Shown one piece after another: positions 6,860 through 59,097 of a stretch of 64,000 bases of DNA. Each line of letters begins with the position of its first letter. Positions within the stretch are counted from its first letter, which is position 1. The position numbers and the translations under genes are program-made. The stretch comes from Alphaproteobacteria bacterium (GTDB lineage Bacteria; Pseudomonadota; Alphaproteobacteria; JAIXQD01), in assembly GCA_965246895.1 (NCBI GenBank), contig OZ251993.1, forward strand, positions 838,897-902,896. The letters run 5' to 3'. The notes beneath the pieces were generated by a model. That model was not told where the DNA came from. It searched no databases and saw only the letters and a list, made by a program, of their open reading frames with translations.

Positions 6860-8284
6860 TCAGACGCTGTAATACATTCGGTATTCGATGGGGTGGGGCG
6901 AGGTATCATAGGCCTCGACCTCTTCCATCTTTAGGGCGATATAGGCGTCGATCATATCGTCGGTGAAGACGCCACCTTGGGTCAGGAAGGCGCGGTCGGC
7001 ATCAAGGCTGCTGAGCGCTTCGCGCAAAGACCCGCAGACGGTCGGCACCTTGGCCAGCTCGTCCTTCGGCAGTTCGTAAAGGTTGGCGTCCATCGCCGCG
7101 CCGGGGTGGATCTTGTTGCGGATGCCGTCGAGGCCCGCCATCAGCATCGCCGCATAGGCGAGATACGGATTGGCGGAGGGATCGGGGAAGCGCACCTCGA
7201 CCCGCTTGGCCTTCGGCCCAGTGCCATGCGGAATGCGGCAGGAGGCGGAGCGGTTGCGTGCGGAATAGGCGAGCAGCACCGGCGCCTCGTACCCCGGCAC
7301 TAGCCGCTTGTAGCTGTTGGTGGACGGGTTAGTGAGGGCGTTCAGCGCCTTCGCGTGCTTGATAATGCCGCCGATATAGAAGAGCGCGGTTTCCGATAGG
7401 CCCGCATATAGATCGCCCGCGAAGAGCGGTTGCCCCTTGTTCCAGATCGACTGGTGCACATGCATGCCGCTGCCGTTATCGCCGTAGACGGGCTTGGGCA
7501 TGAATGTGGCGGTTTTGCCGTAGAGATGCGCGACGTTATGGACGACGTACTTGTAAGTCTGCATATTGTCGGCGGTGTTCACCAGCGTTGCGAACTTGAT
7601 GCCGAGTTCGTGCTGCGAGGCGGCGACTTCGTGGTGGTGCTTTTCGACCGGCACGCCCATCTGTTCGAGCGTGGTGACCATTTCCGCCCGCAGGTCGGCG
7701 CCGCTGTCGACCGGCGCCACGGGGAAGTAGCCGCCCTTGGTGACCGGGCGATGGCCAAGGTTGCCATCGGCGATCTTCGTGCCGGAATTATACGGGCCTT
7801 CCTCGCTATCGATCTCGTAAAAGACAGTGTTGGGCTTGAGATCGAAGCGGACGGAATCGAAAATGAAAAATTCAGCCTCCGGCCCGAAGTAGGCGGTATC
7901 GCCGATCCCGCTTTGTTTTAAGAACGCTTCTGCATTTTTCGAAATACTGCGCGGGCAGCGCTCGTAGTTTTCGTTTGTCTTCGGATCGAGTACATCGCAA
8001 AGGACGTTGAGCGTTGGTTGCGCGGCGAACGGATCGAGCACGGCAGTCGCGGGATCGAGCTGCAAGATCATGTCGCTCTCGTTGATCGCCTTCCAGCCGG
8101 CGATGGAGGAGCCGTCAAACATGATGCCATCGGTGAAGGTGTCTTCTTCGATCGTTGAGATATGCTGGGCGGTGTGGTGCAGCTTGCCGCGCAGATCGGT
8201 AAAGCGAAGATCGACGTATTTGATGTCGTGCTCGCGGACGAGATCGAAAAAGCGGGCAATGGCGGCTGATGTTTCAGTGGGCAT
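6860..8284 (-). CDS. glnA: Glutamine synthetase type I
   Basis: 474 aa. GS signatures include ...[18 protein letters not shown]..., and the length is typical of GlnA. Confidence 0.95.
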
Positions 8285-20119: not shown

Positions 20120-20884
20120 ATGCCAATGTTTGAAAAATTATTCAGCAAAGGCAGGTTTCTGGCAGGGACCTCTTTTTCAAAAATATATTTCGTAAAAACG
20201 GCTGATGGTCGTTACCGCCGTTTTTTTCATCGTAAATCGCAGGCCGACAGGGGCGTAATCAGGCAGATTTTTGTAAAAAAAGATTATTCACTTCGCAAAA
20301 TGGCGCGACGCGACGATCTGCTTAAAATCTATAAAGCTATTATAGAGAGTAAACGAACGCCCTTAATTATAGACGCTGGCTCAAATATCGGCGCCAGCGT
20401 TGTGTGGTTCGCCGATCAGTTCGAAGGTAGTCATATTGTTGCCTTTGAGCCTAGTGCAGAAAACGTAAAGTTATTAAAACGAAATACAGCCGATCTAGAT
20501 GTTGATATTCATGCAGCGGCATTGGGATCAACAGATGGTTTTGTCAGCCTTATTGATCCGGGCATGGGCGAATGGGGTTATCAAACGCAAGATAATAGCA
20601 AGGGCGAGTGCAAGCGGGAGTCGTTGTCGCGGCTTATCAAAGAAAAGATGGCTGAACAGTATGTGCCGTTTTTGATCAAAATCGACATCGAGGGCGGAGA
20701 AAGCGATTTGTTTGAAGCGCAGACAGAGTGGGTGGATCTGTTTCCTCTGCTGATCATCGAGCTACACGATTGGATGCTGCCCCGGCAGAAGACGTCCTAT
20801 ACTTTTCTAAAGCGTATCAGCCAATCGAACCGCGACTTCGTCTATAGCGGAGAAAATATATTCTCAGTAAAAAATGATGATTAA
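20120..20884 (+). CDS. FkbM-family SAM-dependent methyltransferase. The probable true start is the third codon Met at 20126.
   Basis: FkbM-like motifs IDAGSNIGAS, AFEPS, and IKIDIEGGE. The gene is AT-rich, and its stop abuts the 3' end of tRNA-Val. Confidence 0.7.
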   Translation: MPMFEKLFSKGRFLAGTSFSKIYFVKTADGRYRRFFHRKSQADRGVIRQIFVKKDYSLRKMARRDDLLKIYKAIIESKRTPLIIDAGSNIGASVVWFADQFEGSHIVAFEPSAENVKLLKRNTADLDVDIHAAALGSTDGFVSLIDPGMGEWGYQTQDNSKGECKRESLSRLIKEKMAEQYVPFLIKIDIEGGESDLFEAQTEWVDLFPLLIIELHDWMLPRQKTSYTFLKRISQSNRDFVYSGENIFSVKNDD

Positions 20885-20885
20885 A

Positions 20886-20960
20886 TGGTGGGCGGTGAGG
20901 GATTCGAACCCCCGACCAACTCGGTGTAAACGAGTTGCGCTACCGCTGCGCTAACCGCCC
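20886..20960 (-). tRNA. tRNA-Val (anticodon TAC) with encoded CCA
   Basis: Reverse complement reads GGGCGGTTAGCGCAGCGGTAGCGCAACTCGTTTACACCGAGTTGGTCGGGGGTTCGAATCCCTCACCGCCCACCA. Anticodon loop is TTTACAC. Confidence 0.9.
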
Positions 20961-38824: not shown

Positions 38825-39901
38825 TTAAGCGGTCTGGCGCAGTAATTCAGGCTGAGCGGTAGAAGCCGGAGCGCCGCAATCGACCCAGCGATAATTGGCA
38901 GTATCGGCAAAGACCGCATGCAAGAGCTTGTTATTCAGGGCATGGCCGGTGGCCACGCCTTCAAAGCGGCCGAGGATCGCACCGCCGCAAAGCGACAGGT
39001 CACCGATCGCATCCAGCAGCTTGTGGCGGGCAAATTCAGTATCGAAGCGGAGACCACCGAGGTTAGCTACAACCGTATCCCAAACCAGGACGTTATTATC
39101 GAGGCTGCCGCCTTTGCCTAAACCGTTCGACCAGACAGCATCAAGCTCGGCAAATAGCGTGAAGGAGCGGGCAGCGGCAATCTCGCGCTTATAAGCGGTA
39201 GGGGTCAGGCGCAGCTCTGCCGATTGGTTGCCAATCAGCGCATTGGTGCGGGTGTAATCGAGCGTAACTTTATAATCGCTAGTAGCCGCAGGCATGAAAC
39301 GCGCGGATTTGCCAGCTTCGGTAATTTCGACCGGCCGCAGGATTTCTAAAACGCGGCGCGGCGCTGATTGCGGCATAATACCCATATGCTCGATCGCAGC
39401 AACGATTGGCGCGGCACTACCATCCATTGCTGGCACTTCCGGGCCATCAATCTCAATCGTGCAATTATCAATGCCGAGGCCAGCAAGAGCGGAGGTAACA
39501 TGCTCGACCGTTGAGACGCGCGCGCCGAAGCTGTTGCCGATAACAGTGCAAAGGCGGGTGTCGACTACATGATCCCAACGCGCAGAAATGGTGTTCTCGC
39601 CGTCTTTCAGATCAGTGCGGATAAACGTGATGCCGCTGTTCGCTGGCGCTGGCAGCAGACGCATGGTGACGGTCGCGCCGCTATGTAGGCCGATATCTGT
39701 CAGCGTCACAGGCTGGACGAGGGTCTGCTGGTAAGGGGGGCAAATAGCCGAATCGAATTTCATATCAACAAGATAGGGCCTGGTATTGGTTGCACCAAAA
39801 CAAGCATTGTGACGCTTTGTTTCAAGGCTAACCAATTGATTTTTATGACTATCCTGTGGGCAGGCCTTCTTCTTCGCCAGGCACAGAAACGTCGTAGGCA
39901 T
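38825..39901 (-). CDS. lpxC: UDP-3-O-acyl-N-acetylglucosamine deacetylase. The ORF-track start at 39901 is probably over-extended; the likely true start is Met-47 (MKFDSAI...) near 39763.
   Basis: LpxC motifs (HSGATVTMRLLPAP..., catalytic His/Asp blocks). The extended N-terminus would overlap the upstream CMD-family gene. Confidence 0.9.
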   Translation of the reverse strand: MPTTFLCLAKKKACPQDSHKNQLVSLETKRHNACFGATNTRPYLVDMKFDSAICPPYQQTLVQPVTLTDIGLHSGATVTMRLLPAPANSGITFIRTDLKDGENTISARWDHVVDTRLCTVIGNSFGARVSTVEHVTSALAGLGIDNCTIEIDGPEVPAMDGSAAPIVAAIEHMGIMPQSAPRRVLEILRPVEITEAGKSARFMPAATSDYKVTLDYTRTNALIGNQSAELRLTPTAYKREIAAARSFTLFAELDAVWSNGLGKGGSLDNNVLVWDTVVANLGGLRFDTEFARHKLLDAIGDLSLCGGAILGRFEGVATGHALNNKLLHAVFADTANYRWVDCGAPASTAQPELLRQTA

Positions 39902-40433
39902 TGAGCGTCACTGAGACGAGGCAATAGCAACCGACGAGATAAGCAAGCTCTGCCGTGCCAGCTTCACCAAAGTGCTTGAGCGCCAATTGATAGGCGGCTT
40001 CCGGCAGTTGCCCGCCACGGCTGAGTGCATAGGCGACATCATAGGCGATGCCTTCTTCTGCAGACAGATCAGCGGGGCGCTGGCCGGTGGTGATGGTCGC
40101 GATCTTTTCGGGCGAGAGGCCGAGGTTTTGAGCGACATGCTCATGCGCATACATTTCATAGCGGGAGCGGAACTGCGCGCCAACGACGAGGATCGCGATC
40201 TCGCGCACCGGTTTTGGCAGCTTTGAATTGACGCCGATGGCGACAATAAAATCCCACACAGGCTTGCCGAATTGCGGGAACTGCAGCATGGCGTTGAACG
40301 GGCCGACCAATGCGCCATCGGCACGCTTCGATACAAAACCTTTCAGACGCGCGGAGATGCCCTCGTTCATTTCATCGTAAAATGGCTTTTGCTCAGGCGT
40401 CAGAGCGGCAGCGGGAATTGGGGGTAGGCGCAT
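39849..40433 (-). CDS. Carboxymuconolactone decarboxylase (CMD/AhpD-like) family protein
   Basis: 194 aa, helical CMD-family pattern. Unusually located between ftsZ and lpxC. Confidence 0.65.
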   Translation of the reverse strand: MRLPPIPAAALTPEQKPFYDEMNEGISARLKGFVSKRADGALVGPFNAMLQFPQFGKPVWDFIVAIGVNSKLPKPVREIAILVVGAQFRSRYEMYAHEHVAQNLGLSPEKIATITTGQRPADLSAEEGIAYDVAYALSRGGQLPEAAYQLALKHFGEAGTAELAYLVGCYCLVSVTLNAYDVSVPGEEEGLPTG

Positions 40434-40450
40434 TGTGAACTCCGATTAAT

Positions 40451-40486
40451 GGAAAAGCCCGGCGGTGAAGCCGGGCTTTTGATTTT
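40451..40486 (-). terminator. Rho-independent (bidirectional-type) terminator immediately after ftsZ
   Basis: AAAAGCCCGGC-ggtgaa-GCCGGGCTTTT, with T-runs on both strands. Confidence 0.65.
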
Positions 40487-40503
40487 GCACTAAGTTTTAC
40501 AGC

Positions 40504-42186
40504 TTAATTCGATTGGCGGCGAAGGAAGGCTGGGATTTCCAGCTCGTCTTCTGTTTGCTGCGGTGCCGATTGGCTAGTTTGCGGCTGTTGATAGCTGCTG
40601 CCTTGCTGCGGTTGTTGCATGGATGGTTGTTGATAGCTGCTTTGGGGCTGGCTGTTGGTATGATTGGGCGTGCCTTGTAGACCGAGGCTGCTCTTCGCAC
40701 GTTCGATCAGCGATGGCTGGCGGCGCACACGTTCTTCAAAGTTCATGTGATTGTTTTGCGACGACTGCTGTGTGCCTTGCGATTGTTGTGATTGATCCGG
40801 TGCATAGCTGGACGAGGTAGGAATGCTGTTATTGTTAGGCATCGCGACTGGCGCAAAGCCGTTATCCGACATAGTTGGCTGCGCGTAGCTTTGCGTGGCA
40901 GCGGATGGCGTTAGCCCAGCTTCGCTTGGCAGTGGCAAATCTTGTGAAACATCGCTGTTCCAATTGCTATCAGACGTGCTGCTAGTCGGTTGCTGATTAC
41001 TTTGCGGCGTCAGCTGCGTATAGCCGGAGGCGGTCCCGCCGCTTGTGTTCTGGCCATGCGTGGAATTGTTTGCCGTCGGCGCCGGTGTCATTTGCGCCTG
41101 ATAGGTCGCGCTTGGCGTGTAGTTGGTAGGGCTGGTTGGGCGGTTCTGCACAACGCTGAATGGCGCGCCGACTGCGCCGAAGTTTGCCGTTGCTGCGGAG
41201 GCCGTTCGCGGCAAAGTGGCAGTGGCCGCTTCGATGCCCGTGGCGACGACAGACACGCGAATCGAGCCTTCGATTTCAGGATTGAACGTTGAGCCGAAGA
41301 TGATGTTGGCATCTGGATCGACTTCCTCGCGAATGCGGTTAGCAGCCTGATCCACTTCATAAAGCGTCATATCCATGCCGCCAGTAATATTAATCAGCAC
41401 GCCGCGTGCACCCTTCATCGAAACATCGTCGAGCAGTGGATTACGAATTGCGGCTTCGGCAGCGTCAAGGGCGCGGGTCGCGCCAGAGGCTTCACCGGTA
41501 CCCATCATCGCCTTGCCCATTTCGGCCATGACGCTACGGATATCGTTGAAGTCGAGATTGATCATACCAGGCATGGTGATGAGGTCGGTCACGCCGCGTA
41601 CGCCCGAATGCAACACGTCATCGGCCATGGTAAAGGCTTGCGCAAATGTCGTCTTCTCGTTCGCGAGGCGGAAGAGGTTGTTGTTCGGAATGACGATCAG
41701 CGTGTCGACATATTGCTGTAGTTCCTGGATGCCGCTTTCGGCTAGGCGCATGCGGTGCGCCCCTTCGAAGCCGAATGGCTTAGTGACGACACCGACCGTG
41801 AGGATGCCGAGTTCGCGTGCCGTGCGCGCCACGACTGGCGCTGCGCCGGTACCGGTGCCGCCGCCCATGCCGGCAGCGATAAAGACCATGTTGCAGCCGG
41901 AAAGCGCTTGCGTGATTTCATCAATCTGCTCTTCCGCGGCAGCGCGACCCATATCGGGGCGGGCGCCTGCACCTAGGCCCTTGGTGAGGCTGGCACCGAG
42001 TTGGATGCGATTTTGCGACAGGCTGTTCGAAAGCGCCTGCGCGTCTGTATTGAGAACGAGGAAATCGACACCCGAAAGATCATTGCGGATCATGTTAGTG
42101 ACAGCATTGCCACCCGCGCCACCAACGCCGCAGATCAGAATGCGGGGGCTAAGGGTTTGCTCTTGCGGGATCGAAAGATTGATCAT
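40504..42186 (-). CDS. ftsZ: Cell division protein FtsZ with long Q/S/T/P-rich C-terminal linker
   Basis: Tubulin signature [11 protein letters not shown]. 560 aa with extended low-complexity linker and a conserved C-terminal peptide. Preceded by GGAG Shine-Dalgarno. Confidence 0.95.
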
Positions 42187-42315
42187 CGGGAATAAGCTCC
42201 TAAAAGGGTGGCGTCGGCTAACAAAAATCGAATCAGGGGCGTCAAAAGTCTTTACGCTCTGTTAACACCATTGGTACGCAGGATTCGAAGCATGTGCAAC
42301 ATAAATGGCACAAAT

Positions 42316-43881
42316 TTAGCTCGGTTGTGTGCCTGCCTGGCGGCTTGACGAAAGAGACTGTGGATAACTGGGGCATGGCGAAGGTTGCCATCGCTCGATC
42401 ACACGGCAATCGGCCACTTTCTTTTGAAAAGTTGCCGACATTCTCTGGATCTTATTGCGTACGCCTTCAGCAATGCCCTCATGATCATCGTGACTGAGGC
42501 GATACACGATCACGGCTAAAGCTTTATCGAATTTCGGATGAAACGAATCGAATGATTTTACGCGCGTTGCAACTTCGTTTCTGACGCCTTCCGAAGGATC
42601 TCTAGATAACAGATCAAGCGTTTCGATCATGTCTGTCACTCGTATTTGATCAGCTTGTTTATGGAGAGCCTGCATGCCTGATAAAGCATAGTCGGGTACA
42701 ACCATGCGAACCTTAGTTTCAGGATGAAAACTGAGCTGAACGACAGCGTCGAGTGCCTGTGCGTATTTGTCAGCATGCATGTGATCGAAGAAGCGATTGC
42801 CGAGCATCATTAATCCGTCGAGACGCCGGCTGGGATCAGGATGTGTAAGGAGTGTTTTCGCGTAGGCATATAGACGTTCATTTTGAGCTTGGGTGAGCGG
42901 CGGCACAGCAAGTTGGCCATCTTGACGCGGGCCCTCAACGGGAAGTAACGGCATGATTGAACGCGTTTCACAATCATCGATGGCGGCATCGATCAGCTTC
43001 GGATAAAATTCATCAAAATTCAGCCGGTCTTTAAGCGATGATATTTCAATCGAAGTATCGTCGTTGCTGTCAGCAATAACGAAACCTTCGTCGCCGAAAT
43101 GCATCTGGAACTTTTCCTGCGTTCTCGGCAATAACAATACGAACAGGCTGCCGGTTTTGTTGTAATCGTCAAACGCAGATCGGCTATCAGTGTCGGCTGT
43201 GCACCATTGCGTTTGGCGACCGTAAAAACGTGCAGCTGCAATTCGGTTGATGCGCAGAAGTCGATAATCTTCATTTTTACCAATGATAACAGCCGCCGGG
43301 TCTTTGCCAGCCAATAAAGCTATTTCTTCCGGATTGCCGGCTATGAACGACGTATCAACGACTTTTGGCTTGAACATGTTACGGAACGCAGTCGGAAAAT
43401 CCGCTTCCTCGCAGTAGGAATTAAAACGCGGTGAATTGTGGATTCGTTGTTTGTACGGCTGTAAGCCTTTGAAAATTTCAGCAGGTTTCAGGGCAATTAG
43501 CTGTCCGGTGTAAGATCCAAGTGGAGCATATAGATCGAATGGAATATAAGCGCTGTGCAGCGCGTCCACAGCGGCAAGATAAAGCGAAATTTTATCTGTA
43601 TCTTCGTAGAATAATCGATGGCGTTCGGCGGGCGATGATTGTTTTACCAAAGTGCAAAGATAGGGAATGAATTTACCAGCTGGCGTTAAATCGATTTGCA
43701 AAATCATTTCAATCGAACGTTGTACATCGAGTTCACTGTCATAAGCTCTGTAATCGCCGATAAAAGGATTTTCACGTATAAAATCGCCTGCATCGCTCAA
43801 CAAGAAGGTTAGTTGGCGCTGTTTGGCCTGTCGCATTGGTGGCAAATTATAGGGATTTTCATCCATGCCCGGTTCTATCAC
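42316..43881 (-). CDS. Hypothetical 521-aa protein inserted between ftsA and ftsZ. It is AT-rich, the C-terminal third has HEAT/PBS-like repeat character, and the ORF-track start is a GTG.
   Basis: Long uninterrupted ORF, AT-richer than flanking dcw genes, with no recognised catalytic motifs. C-terminal repeats resemble DPSxxVRxxAxxxL HEAT-like units. Confidence 0.55.
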   Translation of the reverse strand: MIEPGMDENPYNLPPMRQAKQRQLTFLLSDAGDFIRENPFIGDYRAYDSELDVQRSIEMILQIDLTPAGKFIPYLCTLVKQSSPAERHRLFYEDTDKISLYLAAVDALHSAYIPFDLYAPLGSYTGQLIALKPAEIFKGLQPYKQRIHNSPRFNSYCEEADFPTAFRNMFKPKVVDTSFIAGNPEEIALLAGKDPAAVIIGKNEDYRLLRINRIAAARFYGRQTQWCTADTDSRSAFDDYNKTGSLFVLLLPRTQEKFQMHFGDEGFVIADSNDDTSIEISSLKDRLNFDEFYPKLIDAAIDDCETRSIMPLLPVEGPRQDGQLAVPPLTQAQNERLYAYAKTLLTHPDPSRRLDGLMMLGNRFFDHMHADKYAQALDAVVQLSFHPETKVRMVVPDYALSGMQALHKQADQIRVTDMIETLDLLSRDPSEGVRNEVATRVKSFDSFHPKFDKALAVIVYRLSHDDHEGIAEGVRNKIQRMSATFQKKVADCRVIERWQPSPCPSYPQSLSSSRQAGTQPS

Positions 43882-43923
43882 GCTGCCGTGAAAGTAATTC
43901 GCGAAAAATATTAACGTACAGCC

Positions 43924-45285
43924 TTAAACGTGCTGCTTGATCCAGTGTTTCAGGCGGGTGGTTAGTGAGGCACCGCTGCCGCCTTTATCTGCGAACATAG
44001 GCTGGCGGGTAAAACCGACGAGGCCCAAGGCTGTCGCGAAGGCGGGAAGGTTCGAGAATTCTTCCATCCCCGGTAGCGGACGCGGCGCGCCATAGCGGAC
44101 AGGGCGGCCGAGGATTTGCTGCGCTAATTCGCGCACACCGGGAAGCTGGCTGGCGCCACCCGTCAATACAAAGCGTTCGGCCGCATTCCCCGCCAGAAAT
44201 GGCGGGCGCGGGGCGGCAGCAATTTTCTGGGCCAGCAGCTCGAACGTTTCTTCGATACGCGGACGAATGATGCGGGCGAGAAAGGCTTTTGGAATTTGTT
44301 GGCCATTGCGCGCCTTCGGCTGGTAAATCCCTTGCCCTTGCGCGTTATCGTCGTCATCAAAGCCATGGTCGAAGCGCTTACTAGTACCGCCATCTTCACC
44401 CAGTTGCGGCACAGTGATAAGGTCATGCTCGTCAAGATGACTGGCCATGGCCTGGCCATGCAGGCACTTGAGCCGTTCGGCATGGCCCAGCGGCGTGCCA
44501 AGCCCGCGAGCAAGGTCGCTCGTCACATGCCCGCCGCCAAGGTTGACGCGATCAGCAAAGATAAAGCGGCCACCTTCGAACATGGCAAAGCCAGTCATGC
44601 CGGCGCCCATATCGATGACAGTCGCGCCTAAGTCCATTTCGTCTGGCGTCAGCACGCCAAGGCCACTGGCATAAGATGATAGCACCAATGCACGGGCTTC
44701 GATCTGGCAGTCGGTCAGCACACCCAACAAGGTTTTTACGGGACCAGTGGCTGCGGCGATCAGGTGTGTGGTGATGGCTAACTTATCGCCAACCAAACCA
44801 CGAGGATCGGTAATTGAATGATCGTTATCGAGCGCATAACCGATTGGCAGCGCATGCGCGAGAATTTGGGATGGGTCGGGCAGAGCGCGACGCGCTTCGA
44901 TCAGTGCGCGTTGTAGGTCGGAATCCGTGACAGCGCGACCTGCAAGCTGCGTTTCGGCGGTGATGTGATAGCTGCTGGGCTGGCCTGCAGAGAGATTGAC
45001 CAGCAGACGCTCGACCGGCATGCCAGCCATATGTTCGGTGCCTTGAATAGCCTGACGGATGACGCGGCAGACGGCATCGATATCGACAATATTGCCGCCC
45101 TTGATACCCGCGCTTGCATGATACGCATAGCCGCGCAGTTGCAGTTCGCCATCCATGGTGGGGGCGGCCAAGAGACAGGCGATTTTATCCGACCCAATAT
45201 CGAGCACGGCCAGCGGCGACTTGCGCGGGTCAATCGCCTTTAGCTGTGTTTTTAGATGGTGGGTTGGCATACGCTTGGTGGCCAT
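43924..45285 (-). CDS. ftsA: Cell division protein FtsA
   Basis: 453 aa, actin-like ATPase (LDIGSDKIA...). Conserved position upstream of ftsZ. Confidence 0.9.
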   Translation of the reverse strand: MATKRMPTHHLKTQLKAIDPRKSPLAVLDIGSDKIACLLAAPTMDGELQLRGYAYHASAGIKGGNIVDIDAVCRVIRQAIQGTEHMAGMPVERLLVNLSAGQPSSYHITAETQLAGRAVTDSDLQRALIEARRALPDPSQILAHALPIGYALDNDHSITDPRGLVGDKLAITTHLIAAATGPVKTLLGVLTDCQIEARALVLSSYASGLGVLTPDEMDLGATVIDMGAGMTGFAMFEGGRFIFADRVNLGGGHVTSDLARGLGTPLGHAERLKCLHGQAMASHLDEHDLITVPQLGEDGGTSKRFDHGFDDDDNAQGQGIYQPKARNGQQIPKAFLARIIRPRIEETFELLAQKIAAAPRPPFLAGNAAERFVLTGGASQLPGVRELAQQILGRPVRYGAPRPLPGMEEFSNLPAFATALGLVGFTRQPMFADKGGSGASLTTRLKHWIKQHV

Positions 45286-46327: not shown

Positions 46328-47137
46328 TCAAAAAGGCAGAGTCCGCAAGTCTTCGTACTGTGTTGGGTGGCAAAGTAGATAGCGCCCGCGGATCAGCCAG
46401 TTTTCGTCGAAGCACGATAGATCAAGGCTTTCCAGCGCCCCGCCATCATCGATATTGCGGAATGTCAGACCCAATAGCGGTGCCAGCGGCAGGATCGCTG
46501 CTACATCCCAAAGCTTCGTATTGTTTAGGAAGGAAGCAGCACTGCGACCCAGCAAGGTATAGGCAGCAAACAATGCCGCTGCATAGAAATCGCACAAGGC
46601 TGCGCGACCGAACGTATAATTATCGTTCCAAGGCGCTAGCACAATCGATTGGCGATGCAGGGGCTTTACTGGCAATTGTGCAAGCTCCGTCGGCATTGTA
46701 TCGCGCTTCTGTAGATAGGCAGCAGTGCCATCTGTGTAAAGTAATTCACCCAAAGCAGGCAGATTAATCGCGCTGATGGCAGGCTTGCCGTCAATAAATA
46801 GGCTAAGCAAGATTCCCCAAAGCGGCATGCCGACTGAGTATGGCGTGGTGCCATCGATAGGATCCAGCACCCACACGTATTTTGTCTTTTCAATTGTTTC
46901 ACGCACCTGGCTAAGTGGAGCGATAAATTCCTCGTCAATCAAAAAGTGATCGCTAGCATTAGGCAGGGCCGCTAGCCGTTCGGCAAACATGCGGCTGATA
47001 GCGAGATCAGTTTCTGTGACAATCGAATAATCGTCTTTGAAAGATTGTGTAATCTTATCCTGCGCTGCGAGCGCATAGGCGCCTGCTTCGCGGATGAACG
47101 CGATCATGAGGGTAACGCATGGTTCAGGAATTCGCAT
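46328..47137 (-). CDS. Inositol monophosphatase-family phosphatase (SuhB/CysQ/HisN-like)
   Basis: WVLDPIDGT metal-binding motif. Occupies the slot where murB-ddl normally sit. Confidence 0.7.
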   Translation of the reverse strand: MRIPEPCVTLMIAFIREAGAYALAAQDKITQSFKDDYSIVTETDLAISRMFAERLAALPNASDHFLIDEEFIAPLSQVRETIEKTKYVWVLDPIDGTTPYSVGMPLWGILLSLFIDGKPAISAINLPALGELLYTDGTAAYLQKRDTMPTELAQLPVKPLHRQSIVLAPWNDNYTFGRAALCDFYAAALFAAYTLLGRSAASFLNNTKLWDVAAILPLAPLLGLTFRNIDDGGALESLDLSCFDENWLIRGRYLLCHPTQYEDLRTLPF

Positions 47138-59063: not shown

Positions 59064-59097
59064 TTATCCACATTTGTGTTAACAATTGGTGGATAAC
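59064..59097. promoter_or_regulatory. Inverted pair of DnaA-box-like octamers (TTATCCACA ... TGGTGGATAA) centred on GTTAAC, in the mraZ upstream region
   Basis: Perfect TTATCCAC octamer in both orientations about 16 bp apart. A third CTTATCCAC lies at about 58870 on the other strand. Confidence 0.35.

Follow-up and report, generated by a model that had tools for sequence, protein, structure and literature searches.

A gene of a mostly viral protein family between ftsA and ftsZ in an alphaproteobacterial division cluster

To our knowledge, the adjacency of ftsA and ftsZ is treated as nearly universal. What, then, is a gene doing between them, what kind of protein does it encode, and does it take part in cell division? 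These questions are raised by a stretch of 64,000 nucleotides from an alphaproteobacterium (assembly GCA_965246895.1, contig OZ251993.1, positions 838,897 to 902,896), hereafter the window, to which the coordinates below refer. An intact open reading frame (ORF) of the minus strand, 42316..43881, with a GTG start and 521 aa, lies between ftsA (43924..45285, minus strand), the ORF upstream of it, and ftsZ (40504..42186, minus strand), which encodes 560 aa with a long Q/S/P-rich linker. We refer to it as gene X. An initial annotation, made from the letters of the DNA alone, had reported this ORF, and its existence, integrity and coordinates were confirmed. Our preferred reading, to which we assign a probability of about 0.6, is that X encodes a virus-type accessory protein residing in a permissive ftsA-ftsZ slot, which it entered from an AT-rich viral gene pool.

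The conserved module of X and its relatives in viruses

As a full-length protein, X matched no Pfam family at E ≤ 1, HEAT models included, and gave no match to NCBIfam or to PDB sequences, a profile search included. A word-indexed search of 5.8 billion protein clusters found X itself as the sole match, on a contig of 1,644,468 bp; with the profile of the X domain, the same kind of search returned only seven short proteins. Neither FtsA nor the X-subfamily alignment had a match among the GTDB species representatives searched, a set from which the source genome is absent, nor was the subfamily matched in the JGI metagenomes. The idea that X is an orphan gene was overruled by phmmer, which, run with X against 1.84 billion representatives, gave at least 937 matches at E ≤ 1e-3, 30 of them at E ≤ 1e-10, with a best non-self E-value of 3e-34. 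All matches were confined to residues ~190-300 of X, and the 937 family clusters are defined at 50% identity. No Pfam or NCBIfam model exists for this family. The initial annotation, which had found no recognisable motif, was thus right with regard to Pfam and NCBIfam and wrong otherwise, because X carries the family motif G..T.WCTA...Y...G.L...Q.HF...D.

The conserved module of X covers approximately residues 60-300 and consists of a helical part followed by a small α/β domain. The helical part (residues ~50-190; 43312..43734, minus strand) was delimited with family alignments and, in an alignment of 67 single-module members, follows the pattern DPT..Y..WL...Y..G....ED..K. The α/β domain, termed here the WCTA domain (residues ~195-300; 42982..43299, minus strand), is common to the 937 clusters, and its core consensus in the same alignment reads A..YGrgTqWCTA...F..Y...GpLYi....KYQfHF....D. 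Gly221, Trp226, Cys227, Thr228, Tyr240 and Gln259 are invariant in the family alignment, and the first four of them belong to the core motif GRQTQWCTA (residues 221-229; 43195..43221, minus strand). Thr224, Ala229, Phe237, Gly244, Leu246, His261, Phe262 and Asp274 are near-invariant, His261 and Asp274 being conserved in at least 90% of the family sequences. All of these invariant and near-invariant residues are kept in X. AlphaFold2 (AF2) run on the single sequence of X reached a predicted local distance difference test (pLDDT) score of 36, and the model is of use only with the family alignment; with it, pLDDT was above 90 for residues 180-310, which include the WCTA domain, and ~80-90 for the N-terminal helices (residues 10-110).

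Family proteins that measure 800-2,500 aa consist of the module repeated in tandem with a period of ~450-550 aa. Among these giant members, P0122, P0123, P0128 and P0170 have two to five tandem copies of the whole module and reach up to 2,525 aa. Other members join the module to ankyrin, WG or DUF4116 repeats.

Judging from these comparisons and from those that follow, X is a bacterial chromosomal member of an unnamed and mostly viral family, distributed among jumbo phages and giant viruses. Family-typical members matched the PHROGs phrog_17056 and phrog_28193 at E-values of 1e-7 to 6e-19; the direct match of X to phrog_28193 is weak (E 0.005). With the family consensus, tblastn retrieved 14 jumbo-phage records, and the matches lay in PA5oct-like Pseudomonas phages, Caulobacter phage CcrBL9 and Salicola phage SCTP-2, the last of which bears seven separate copies. 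The domain of X itself matched no phage and no plasmid by tblastn, and a family-typical query had no match among 72,556 plasmids. In IMG/VR, at least 89 loci were confirmed with two narrow patterns; many of them are on contigs of 50-320 kb, and one is in a giant-virus metagenome-assembled genome. Two typical members are located on contigs of 136-148 kb, amid dense small genes with no Pfam match. The viral loci bearing the family have a mean GC content of 0.32, in a sample that is biased to an AT-rich subfamily, CcrBL9 being GC-rich.

The structural comparison pointed in the same direction. Foldseek against BFVD gave 20 matches at E ≤ 1e-3, all with probability 1.0 and headed by the PA5oct protein A0A4Y5JTQ7 (6.9e-8). 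The other matches came from CcrBL9, uncultured tailed phages and Marseillevirus-like viruses, some of them annotated as ankyrin or leucine-rich-repeat proteins. PA5oct gp205 (482 aa, with the domain at ~139-225) is annotated as a structural protein detected in virions by electrospray ionisation tandem mass spectrometry (ESI-MS/MS); the PA5oct paper does not discuss gp205.

Downstream of the module, the AF2 model places a lineage-specific, all-helical C-terminal region of eight consecutive helices (residues ~330-497; 42391..42894, minus strand), for which no homolog was detectable; the C-terminal third of X (residues ~340-521) found none among the 937 phmmer matches. The initial annotation had read this third as HEAT/PBS-lyase repeats. 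This reading was not confirmed. The Pfam result was negative, and the resemblance to α-solenoids is non-significant, the best structural matches in the PDB being PP2A-A, AP2 and importin-α. A firm HEAT-repeat assignment was therefore dropped for want of profile support, and the modelled helices may be a HEAT-like repeat, which is plausible in shape. The last residues (498-521; 42319..42390, minus strand) form an S/P/Q-rich tail with pLDDT below 50, the codons of which read through conserved regulatory DNA of ftsZ. No signal peptide or membrane segment was evident in the X sequence by eye.

The ftsA-ftsZ junction in relatives

Relatives of the window genome were found in three tiers of FtsA identity, namely five metagenome proteins at ~75% (74-76% by BLASTP and 76-80% in the tree alignment), five at ~55%, and generic alphaproteobacteria at ~43%. 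In every related junction recovered from the clade (8/8), the adjacency of ftsA and ftsZ is broken and ftsA is followed by extra genes, with a cargo that varies among the seven junctions reaching ftsZ. L001 and its twin contig L002 have ftsA, a 601-aa gene (+), a 286-aa gene (-) and ftsZ. In L003, the order is ftsA, 161 aa (-), 502 aa (+), 90 aa (+) and ftsZ, and L004, which is without X, has a single 290-aa gene (-) in the gap. L028 bears a 153-aa gene (-), homologous to the 161-aa gene of L003, before the contig ends. In the ~55% tier, the gap of L006 holds a 6.5-kb cluster with acyl carrier protein, FkbH, MaoC/short-chain dehydrogenase/reductase and MBOAT genes and a 497-aa gene, and the gaps of L008 and L017 hold small unknown genes. 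Taken together, the sequences indicate that the ftsA-ftsZ gap is a clade-wide permissive slot that collects varied cargo.

Two observations on this cargo stand apart from X. The L006 cluster (7959-14378 of contig JBFWRI010000031, GCA_050248995.1) resembles a module for the acylation of a surface polymer, lodged within the division and cell-wall (dcw) cluster. Moreover, small genes of another, unrelated family, which have no match in Pfam, occupy the opposite strand of the gap in L001 (13162-14022, -), L003 (4916-5401, -) and L028 (2127-2588, -); the L003 and L028 genes are 45% identical, and the 286-aa gene of L001 matches the L003 gene weakly (E 2e-4).

Homologs of X occupy the gap in two further lineages, in the same position and on the same strand. 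These are the 601-aa protein of L001 (X601, E 4e-22) and the 502-aa protein of L003 (X502, E 4e-19). X, or X521 where the three are compared, is 28% identical to both, over the N-terminal module only; between X601 and X502, identity is 54%, again restricted to the N-terminal ~280 residues, and none of the three C-terminal halves can be aligned with another. A further homolog, P0150 (30% identity to X), is encoded at a different locus, flanked by an SLT lytic transglycosylase gene and rplL. The insertion is thus not specific to one strain, a possibility that the initial annotation had raised, since homologs lie at the same place and on the same strand behind the same 12-nt motif in two further lineages. 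Nor is X a fixed feature of the clade: it is absent from the nested lineage L004, more distant relatives carry unrelated cargo, and P0150, of similar divergence, is found at another locus.

How a division cluster could tolerate such cargo is suggested by the DNA in front of ftsZ. The initial annotation noticed a GGAG ribosome-binding site and about 130 bp of non-coding DNA there, and both were found, with GGAG at 42197..42200 (minus strand) and 129 bp. The 260 nt upstream of ftsZ were aligned for seven loci (the window, L001, L003, L004, L006, L008 and L017). In 7/7 of them, whatever cargo precedes, a block was found consisting of a DnaA box and TGTTG...CGAATC...GTTAA..A..GTAAAG. In the window, the promoter-like part of this block, TTATGTTGCAC ... 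CGAATC ... GTTAACAGAGCGTAAAG, occupies 42250..42304 (minus strand), with elements at 42294-42304, 42282-42287 (CGAATC, a GANTC site) and 42250-42266. The DnaA box, TTATCCACA, lies at 42359..42367 (minus strand) in codons 505-508 of X, that is, within its last 17 codons. It is perfect in the window, L001, L003 and L004 and degenerate in the three ~55% loci; the 64 kb of the window contain only one other perfect box (TTATCCACA, 59064-59072, +). A simple scan for sigma-70 promoters saw none in the block region. Promoter function is proposed here because the block is conserved, and it is on this conservation and on a layout similar to that of Caulobacter that ftsZ very probably has its own promoter, as the initial annotation had supposed. 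With its own promoter, ftsZ would be expressed independently of X, and the gap would therefore be permissive to cargo.

A further observation concerns the same piece of DNA. In L003, the 90-aa ORF (7173-7445) ends in ...TYPQP*, and its DnaA box is read as TAT-CCA-CAG, in the same frame as in X (...SYPQS..., window 42350-42370). The tail of this ORF may be what is left of an ancestral C-terminus of X, or the agreement may be fortuitous.

Descent, composition and rival explanations

In the spacer between ftsA and X, the motif GCGAATTACTTTCA (43889..43902, minus strand) occurs once per X-carrying locus. The 14-mer GCGAATTACTTTCA is common to the window and L001 (11312-11325), and a 12-nt form, GAATTA[CG]TTTCA, was found at 43889-43900 in the window, in L001 (and in L002) and at 5501-5512 in L003. 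It is always upstream of X, on the strand of X, and was seen nowhere else in ~130 kb, where ~0.008 occurrences were expected by chance. The motif could serve as a promoter or operator or belong to an RNA element; Rfam revealed no RNA element at the ftsA-X-ftsZ junction, and a simple scan showed no terminator-like site between ftsA, X and ftsZ.

The motif also bears on the start of X. ATG 43866, which yields 516 aa, is probably a better start than GTG 43881, because the 516-aa product is identical to the database protein P0001, because the ftsA-X spacer then measures 57 nt (55 nt in L001), and because the motif is then at the same distance from the start codon as in L001. GTG 43881 had been considered the better start based on the residues MIE, which are shared with P0131, and was overruled by the nucleotide alignment and the motif spacing.

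X has diverged much faster than its neighbours. Between the window and L001, identity is 75% for FtsA, 74% for MurC, 69% for FtsW, 66% for FtsZ, 61% for MurG, 51% for FtsQ and 28% for X; between L001 and L003, it is 87% for FtsA, 67% for FtsQ and 54% for X. When the L001-L003 divergence of X was scaled by the FtsA and FtsQ distance ratios, vertical descent predicted ~29-36% identity between the X proteins of the window and L001, a range whose lower limit the observed 28% just about reaches. The value is thus close to the one expected if X descended vertically and evolved at a constantly high rate. In the neighbour-joining tree of FtsA, the window branches first in its subclade, and L004, which lacks X, is nested between X carriers. 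The simplest history on these sequences would be one ancestral gain and one loss, the single gain being favoured because the upstream motif and the ftsA-X spacing are common to the window and L001.

In composition, X differs from its surroundings, as the initial annotation had judged by eye. Its GC content is 0.471 and its GC content at third codon positions (GC3) 0.448, vs 0.548 (standard deviation 0.035) and 0.589 (0.082) for the 35 other large ORFs of the window, corresponding to z-scores of about -2.2 and -1.7. Only one of the 36 large ORFs is more AT-rich than X; the window as a whole has 55% GC, and the flanking ftsA and ftsZ have 0.589 and 0.575. The claim that X is AT-richer than its flanking genes and compositionally foreign was thereby substantiated. 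Nevertheless, the same bias is seen in the homologs, with GC contents of 0.448 for X601 (0.609 for its ftsA and 0.612 for its ftsZ), 0.479 for X502 (flanks 0.641 and 0.614) and 0.476 for P0150 (flanks ~0.57-0.58). An AT bias in all homologs is a durable trait of the gene and therefore no sign of recent arrival. The initial annotation had regarded the same gene at this position throughout the family, with normal codon usage, as the mark of a conserved lineage feature; the position is indeed shared in relatives, and the AT bias persists in every homolog. The low GC content may be a viral legacy, may reflect weak selection or a protein rich in amino acids that AT-rich codons encode, or may have several of these causes at once.

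A recent insertion by a mobile element, in the form of a genomic islet, was considered and rejected, since no repeats, integrase, transposase or tRNA target were found. The only repeats flanking X are short and at chance level, the gap has no integrase or recombinase gene, and the nearest tRNA gene is more than 21 kb away.

These data also bear on the possibility that X is inert or near-neutral cargo, gained separately from AT-rich phages and tolerated in a harmless slot. Such a history would accommodate the persistent AT bias, the AT-rich viral relatives and the equal distance of X521 from X601/X502 and from P0150 (27-30%), and would suit a slot that takes many kinds of cargo and a lineage that lost X. 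On the other hand, the ORF is intact at 516-521 aa and keeps all family invariants after long divergence, the motif and spacing shared by the window and L001 argue for one gain, the 28% identity is near the vertical prediction, and there are no mobility genes, flanking repeats or tRNA genes. We consider inert cargo improbable.

A different proposal was made by the initial annotation, in which a protein encoded next to ftsZ could be a new regulator of division interacting with FtsZ or FtsA. In its developed form, X would be a domesticated, lineage-specific division regulator, co-transcribed with ftsQA, the helical C-terminus of which binds FtsZ, FtsA or a neighbouring divisome or envelope protein while the Cys domain modifies it. 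Several observations are consistent with this proposal, namely an unchanged place and orientation directly behind ftsA in three lineages, the conserved motif and spacing in the spacer, the lack of a terminator-like site between ftsA and X, the intact ORF with all family invariants, and the location of P0150 beside a peptidoglycan lytic transglycosylase gene. Phage proteins acting on FtsZ are also known, such as lambda Kil and T7 Gp0.4. The opposing evidence comes from the same loci. X is absent from the nested L004, unrelated cargo takes its place in distant relatives, and P0150 is off the division locus. The C-terminus, which would hold the partner, is not conserved even where FtsA is 87% identical, and X evolves far faster than FtsQ, the fastest division gene in the cluster. 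Searches in Pfam, NCBIfam and PDB revealed no homology of X to described regulators of FtsZ or FtsA (ZapA-D, ZipA, SepF, FzlA, MipZ, KidO and others). The proposed role of X as a cell-division factor, and with it a link to FtsZ or FtsA, was argued from position and is not supported; the loss in L004, the unrelated cargo of sister lineages, the P0150 locus and the non-conserved C-terminus weaken it further. We regard a division regulator as unlikely overall, and it is the alternative to which we give the most weight. A related possibility, which we consider slim, is that a protein of jumbo-phage or giant-virus type was captured by an ancestor of this little-sampled clade and wired into the ftsQA unit as a lineage-specific modifier of the divisome, its Cys/His domain working on FtsZ, FtsA or an envelope partner that the fast-changing helical C-terminus selects. 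If true, a function would thereby be assigned for the first time to a family that comprises over 900 clusters and is found in the virions of very large viruses.

The reading that we prefer, a virus-type accessory protein in a permissive slot, is drawn from the mainly viral family and from a C-terminus that is replaced between lineages, which make X look more like a virus-derived, fast-changing accessory protein. The two-part, fast-evolving pattern likewise points to virus-host or other rapid interactions rather than to the core divisome. X would have entered the slot in the ancestor of the subclade of the window genome, from an AT-rich viral gene pool, and would then have been inherited with its upstream motif, evolving faster than its neighbours, having its C-terminus swapped and being lost in one lineage. 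The protein would be cytoplasmic and made of two parts, in which the variable C-terminal repeats choose the partner and the conserved Cys-containing domain acts on it, possibly as a thiol-dependent modifying enzyme. X would probably be transcribed by polymerases reading through from ftsQA, by way of an element within the 57-nt spacer, or by both routes.

Some points weigh against this preferred reading and must be noted together. X521 is as far from X601 and X502 (28%) as from P0150 (30%), so that two independent gains are conceivable as well. No acquisition event is marked by an integrase, a flanking repeat or a tRNA gene. The viral bias of the family may be inflated by virus-enriched libraries and by the AT-rich sub-alignment used in IMG/VR. 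No member of the family has a shown function. Finally, X was kept beside ftsA, on the same strand and with no terminator between, over long divergence, which could reflect a role in division.

The comparisons define a large unnamed family with an invariant Trp-Cys pair and with Gln-x-His and Asp conserved; one member or more is packaged in a jumbo-phage virion. Through its long-resident copy in a bacterium, the family could become tractable to study. Were X to act on the divisome, a viral gene would clearly have been domesticated into cell division; the present evidence does not support this.

Apart from X, the gene order is the usual alphaproteobacterial one. It runs rsmH, a 178-aa ORF, ftsI, murE, mraY, murD, ftsW, murG and murC, followed by an inositol-monophosphatase-like gene, ftsQ, ftsA, X, ftsZ, a CMD-like gene, lpxC, bamD, recN and ligA. 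The inositol-monophosphatase-family gene (46328-47137, minus strand), located between murC and ftsQ, is kept in L001 (7316-8134). L001 has murC, the monophosphatase gene, murB and ftsQ in succession; the window has no murB at the murC-ftsQ position, and ddl and murF are also absent from its cluster. In FtsZ (560 aa), a linker of ~230 residues, rich in Q, S, P and T, separates the GTPase core from the C-terminal peptide and gives the region 40400-41200 its strong GC and AT skew. The longest lpxC ORF (38825-39901) and the upstream CMD-like gene (39849-40433) share 53 nt at the 3' end of the latter; lpxC probably starts in reality at an internal ATG. Of all large ORFs in the window, the one richest in AT encodes an FkbM-family methyltransferase (20120-20884, +; GC 0.441) and abuts tRNA-Val (20886-20960, -); it may be a small acquired islet.

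Comparison with known systems

Among named families, PcfJ (PF14284; Enterococcus plasmid pCF10 and proteins of Herelleviridae phages) is the one to which the X family may be distantly related, although the relation is unproven from the sequences compared. PcfJ was the sole recurring family when 32 domain segments of the family were compared, three of them giving weak matches (best E 0.0076). One three-module member passes the Pfam PcfJ cut-off by summed score only (27.4 vs 25 bits), and a BFVD protein annotated as 'PcfJ-like' was matched at E 0.069 with probability 0.90. Using hhalign, a 71-sequence alignment of the family domain was compared with eight PcfJ sequences (pCF10 PcfJ and seven phage homologs). 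The score of 23.6 (P 0.0027) is statistically weak, with a probability of 11%, and exceeds the controls, in which 40 column shuffles scored 11.5 ± 2.0 (maximum 16.2) and the reversed alignment 10.6. In an extended alignment, the elements are in register and the WC of the family falls on the HC of PcfJ.

Both families are predicted to have, in the same order, a strand-P, a helix, G-x5-(W/H)C, a helix with an aromatic residue, a Gly and three strands, and they share an invariant Gly and an invariant Cys, a total size of ~450 aa and ties to mobile elements or phages. They differ in the signature, which is EG...HC...T.E...Q..G..N in PcfJ and YG...WCTA...Q.HF...D in X, so that His is replaced by Trp and T.E by Q.H, and only Gly and Cys are kept. 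The domain is C-terminal in PcfJ and located in the first half of X, and PcfJ maps to other PHROGs than the X family. Membership of X itself in PcfJ was rejected, as there is no hit to PF14284 and the signature residues other than Gly and Cys are not present. A literature search on 'PcfJ-like' proteins gave a single passing mention.

By analogy with PcfJ genes found among anti-defence genes on conjugative plasmids, X might be part of an anti-phage defence or counter-defence system. The profile similarity above controls, the family member over the Pfam cut-off and the 'PcfJ-like' structural match would fit such a role, as would the pcfJ gene of pCF10, which adjoins an AcrIIA9-family gene, and the fast evolution and variable C-terminus of X. 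Against it, PADLOC matched neither X nor its homologs nor the cargo genes nearby, and X stands alone among housekeeping genes, without partner genes; the link to PcfJ is weak and leads to other PHROGs, and PcfJ itself has no known function. We hold a defence role to be the least probable of the explanations weighed here.

The DNA in front of ftsZ can be compared with the ftsZ promoter of Caulobacter, which has DnaA and CtrA sites and, between -35 and -10, the conserved GANTC site CGACTC, without which the CcrM methyltransferase does not activate it (PMC3708114). The window lacks a full CtrA box (TTAA-N7-TTAA) in the aligned region, has CGAATC in place of CGACTC, and carries its DnaA box in the 3' end of the X ORF. 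Common to both is a stand-alone regulatory region, putative in the window, in which a DnaA box is accompanied by a conserved CGANTC site soon after a TTG element.

The closest counterpart of X itself is the family of PA5oct gp205. X shares with it the same module and invariants (G..T.WCTA, Y, G.L, Q.HF, D), equally far from the N-terminus, a similar overall size of ~400-600 aa per module, significant sequence and structural matches, and a variable, often repeat-rich C-terminus after the module. In contrast to these relatives, X is a divergent outlier with a C-terminal helical region that has no counterpart elsewhere. It is chromosomal, within a bacterial dcw cluster, whereas typical members reside in AT-rich viral genomes, and at least one of them is packaged in virions.

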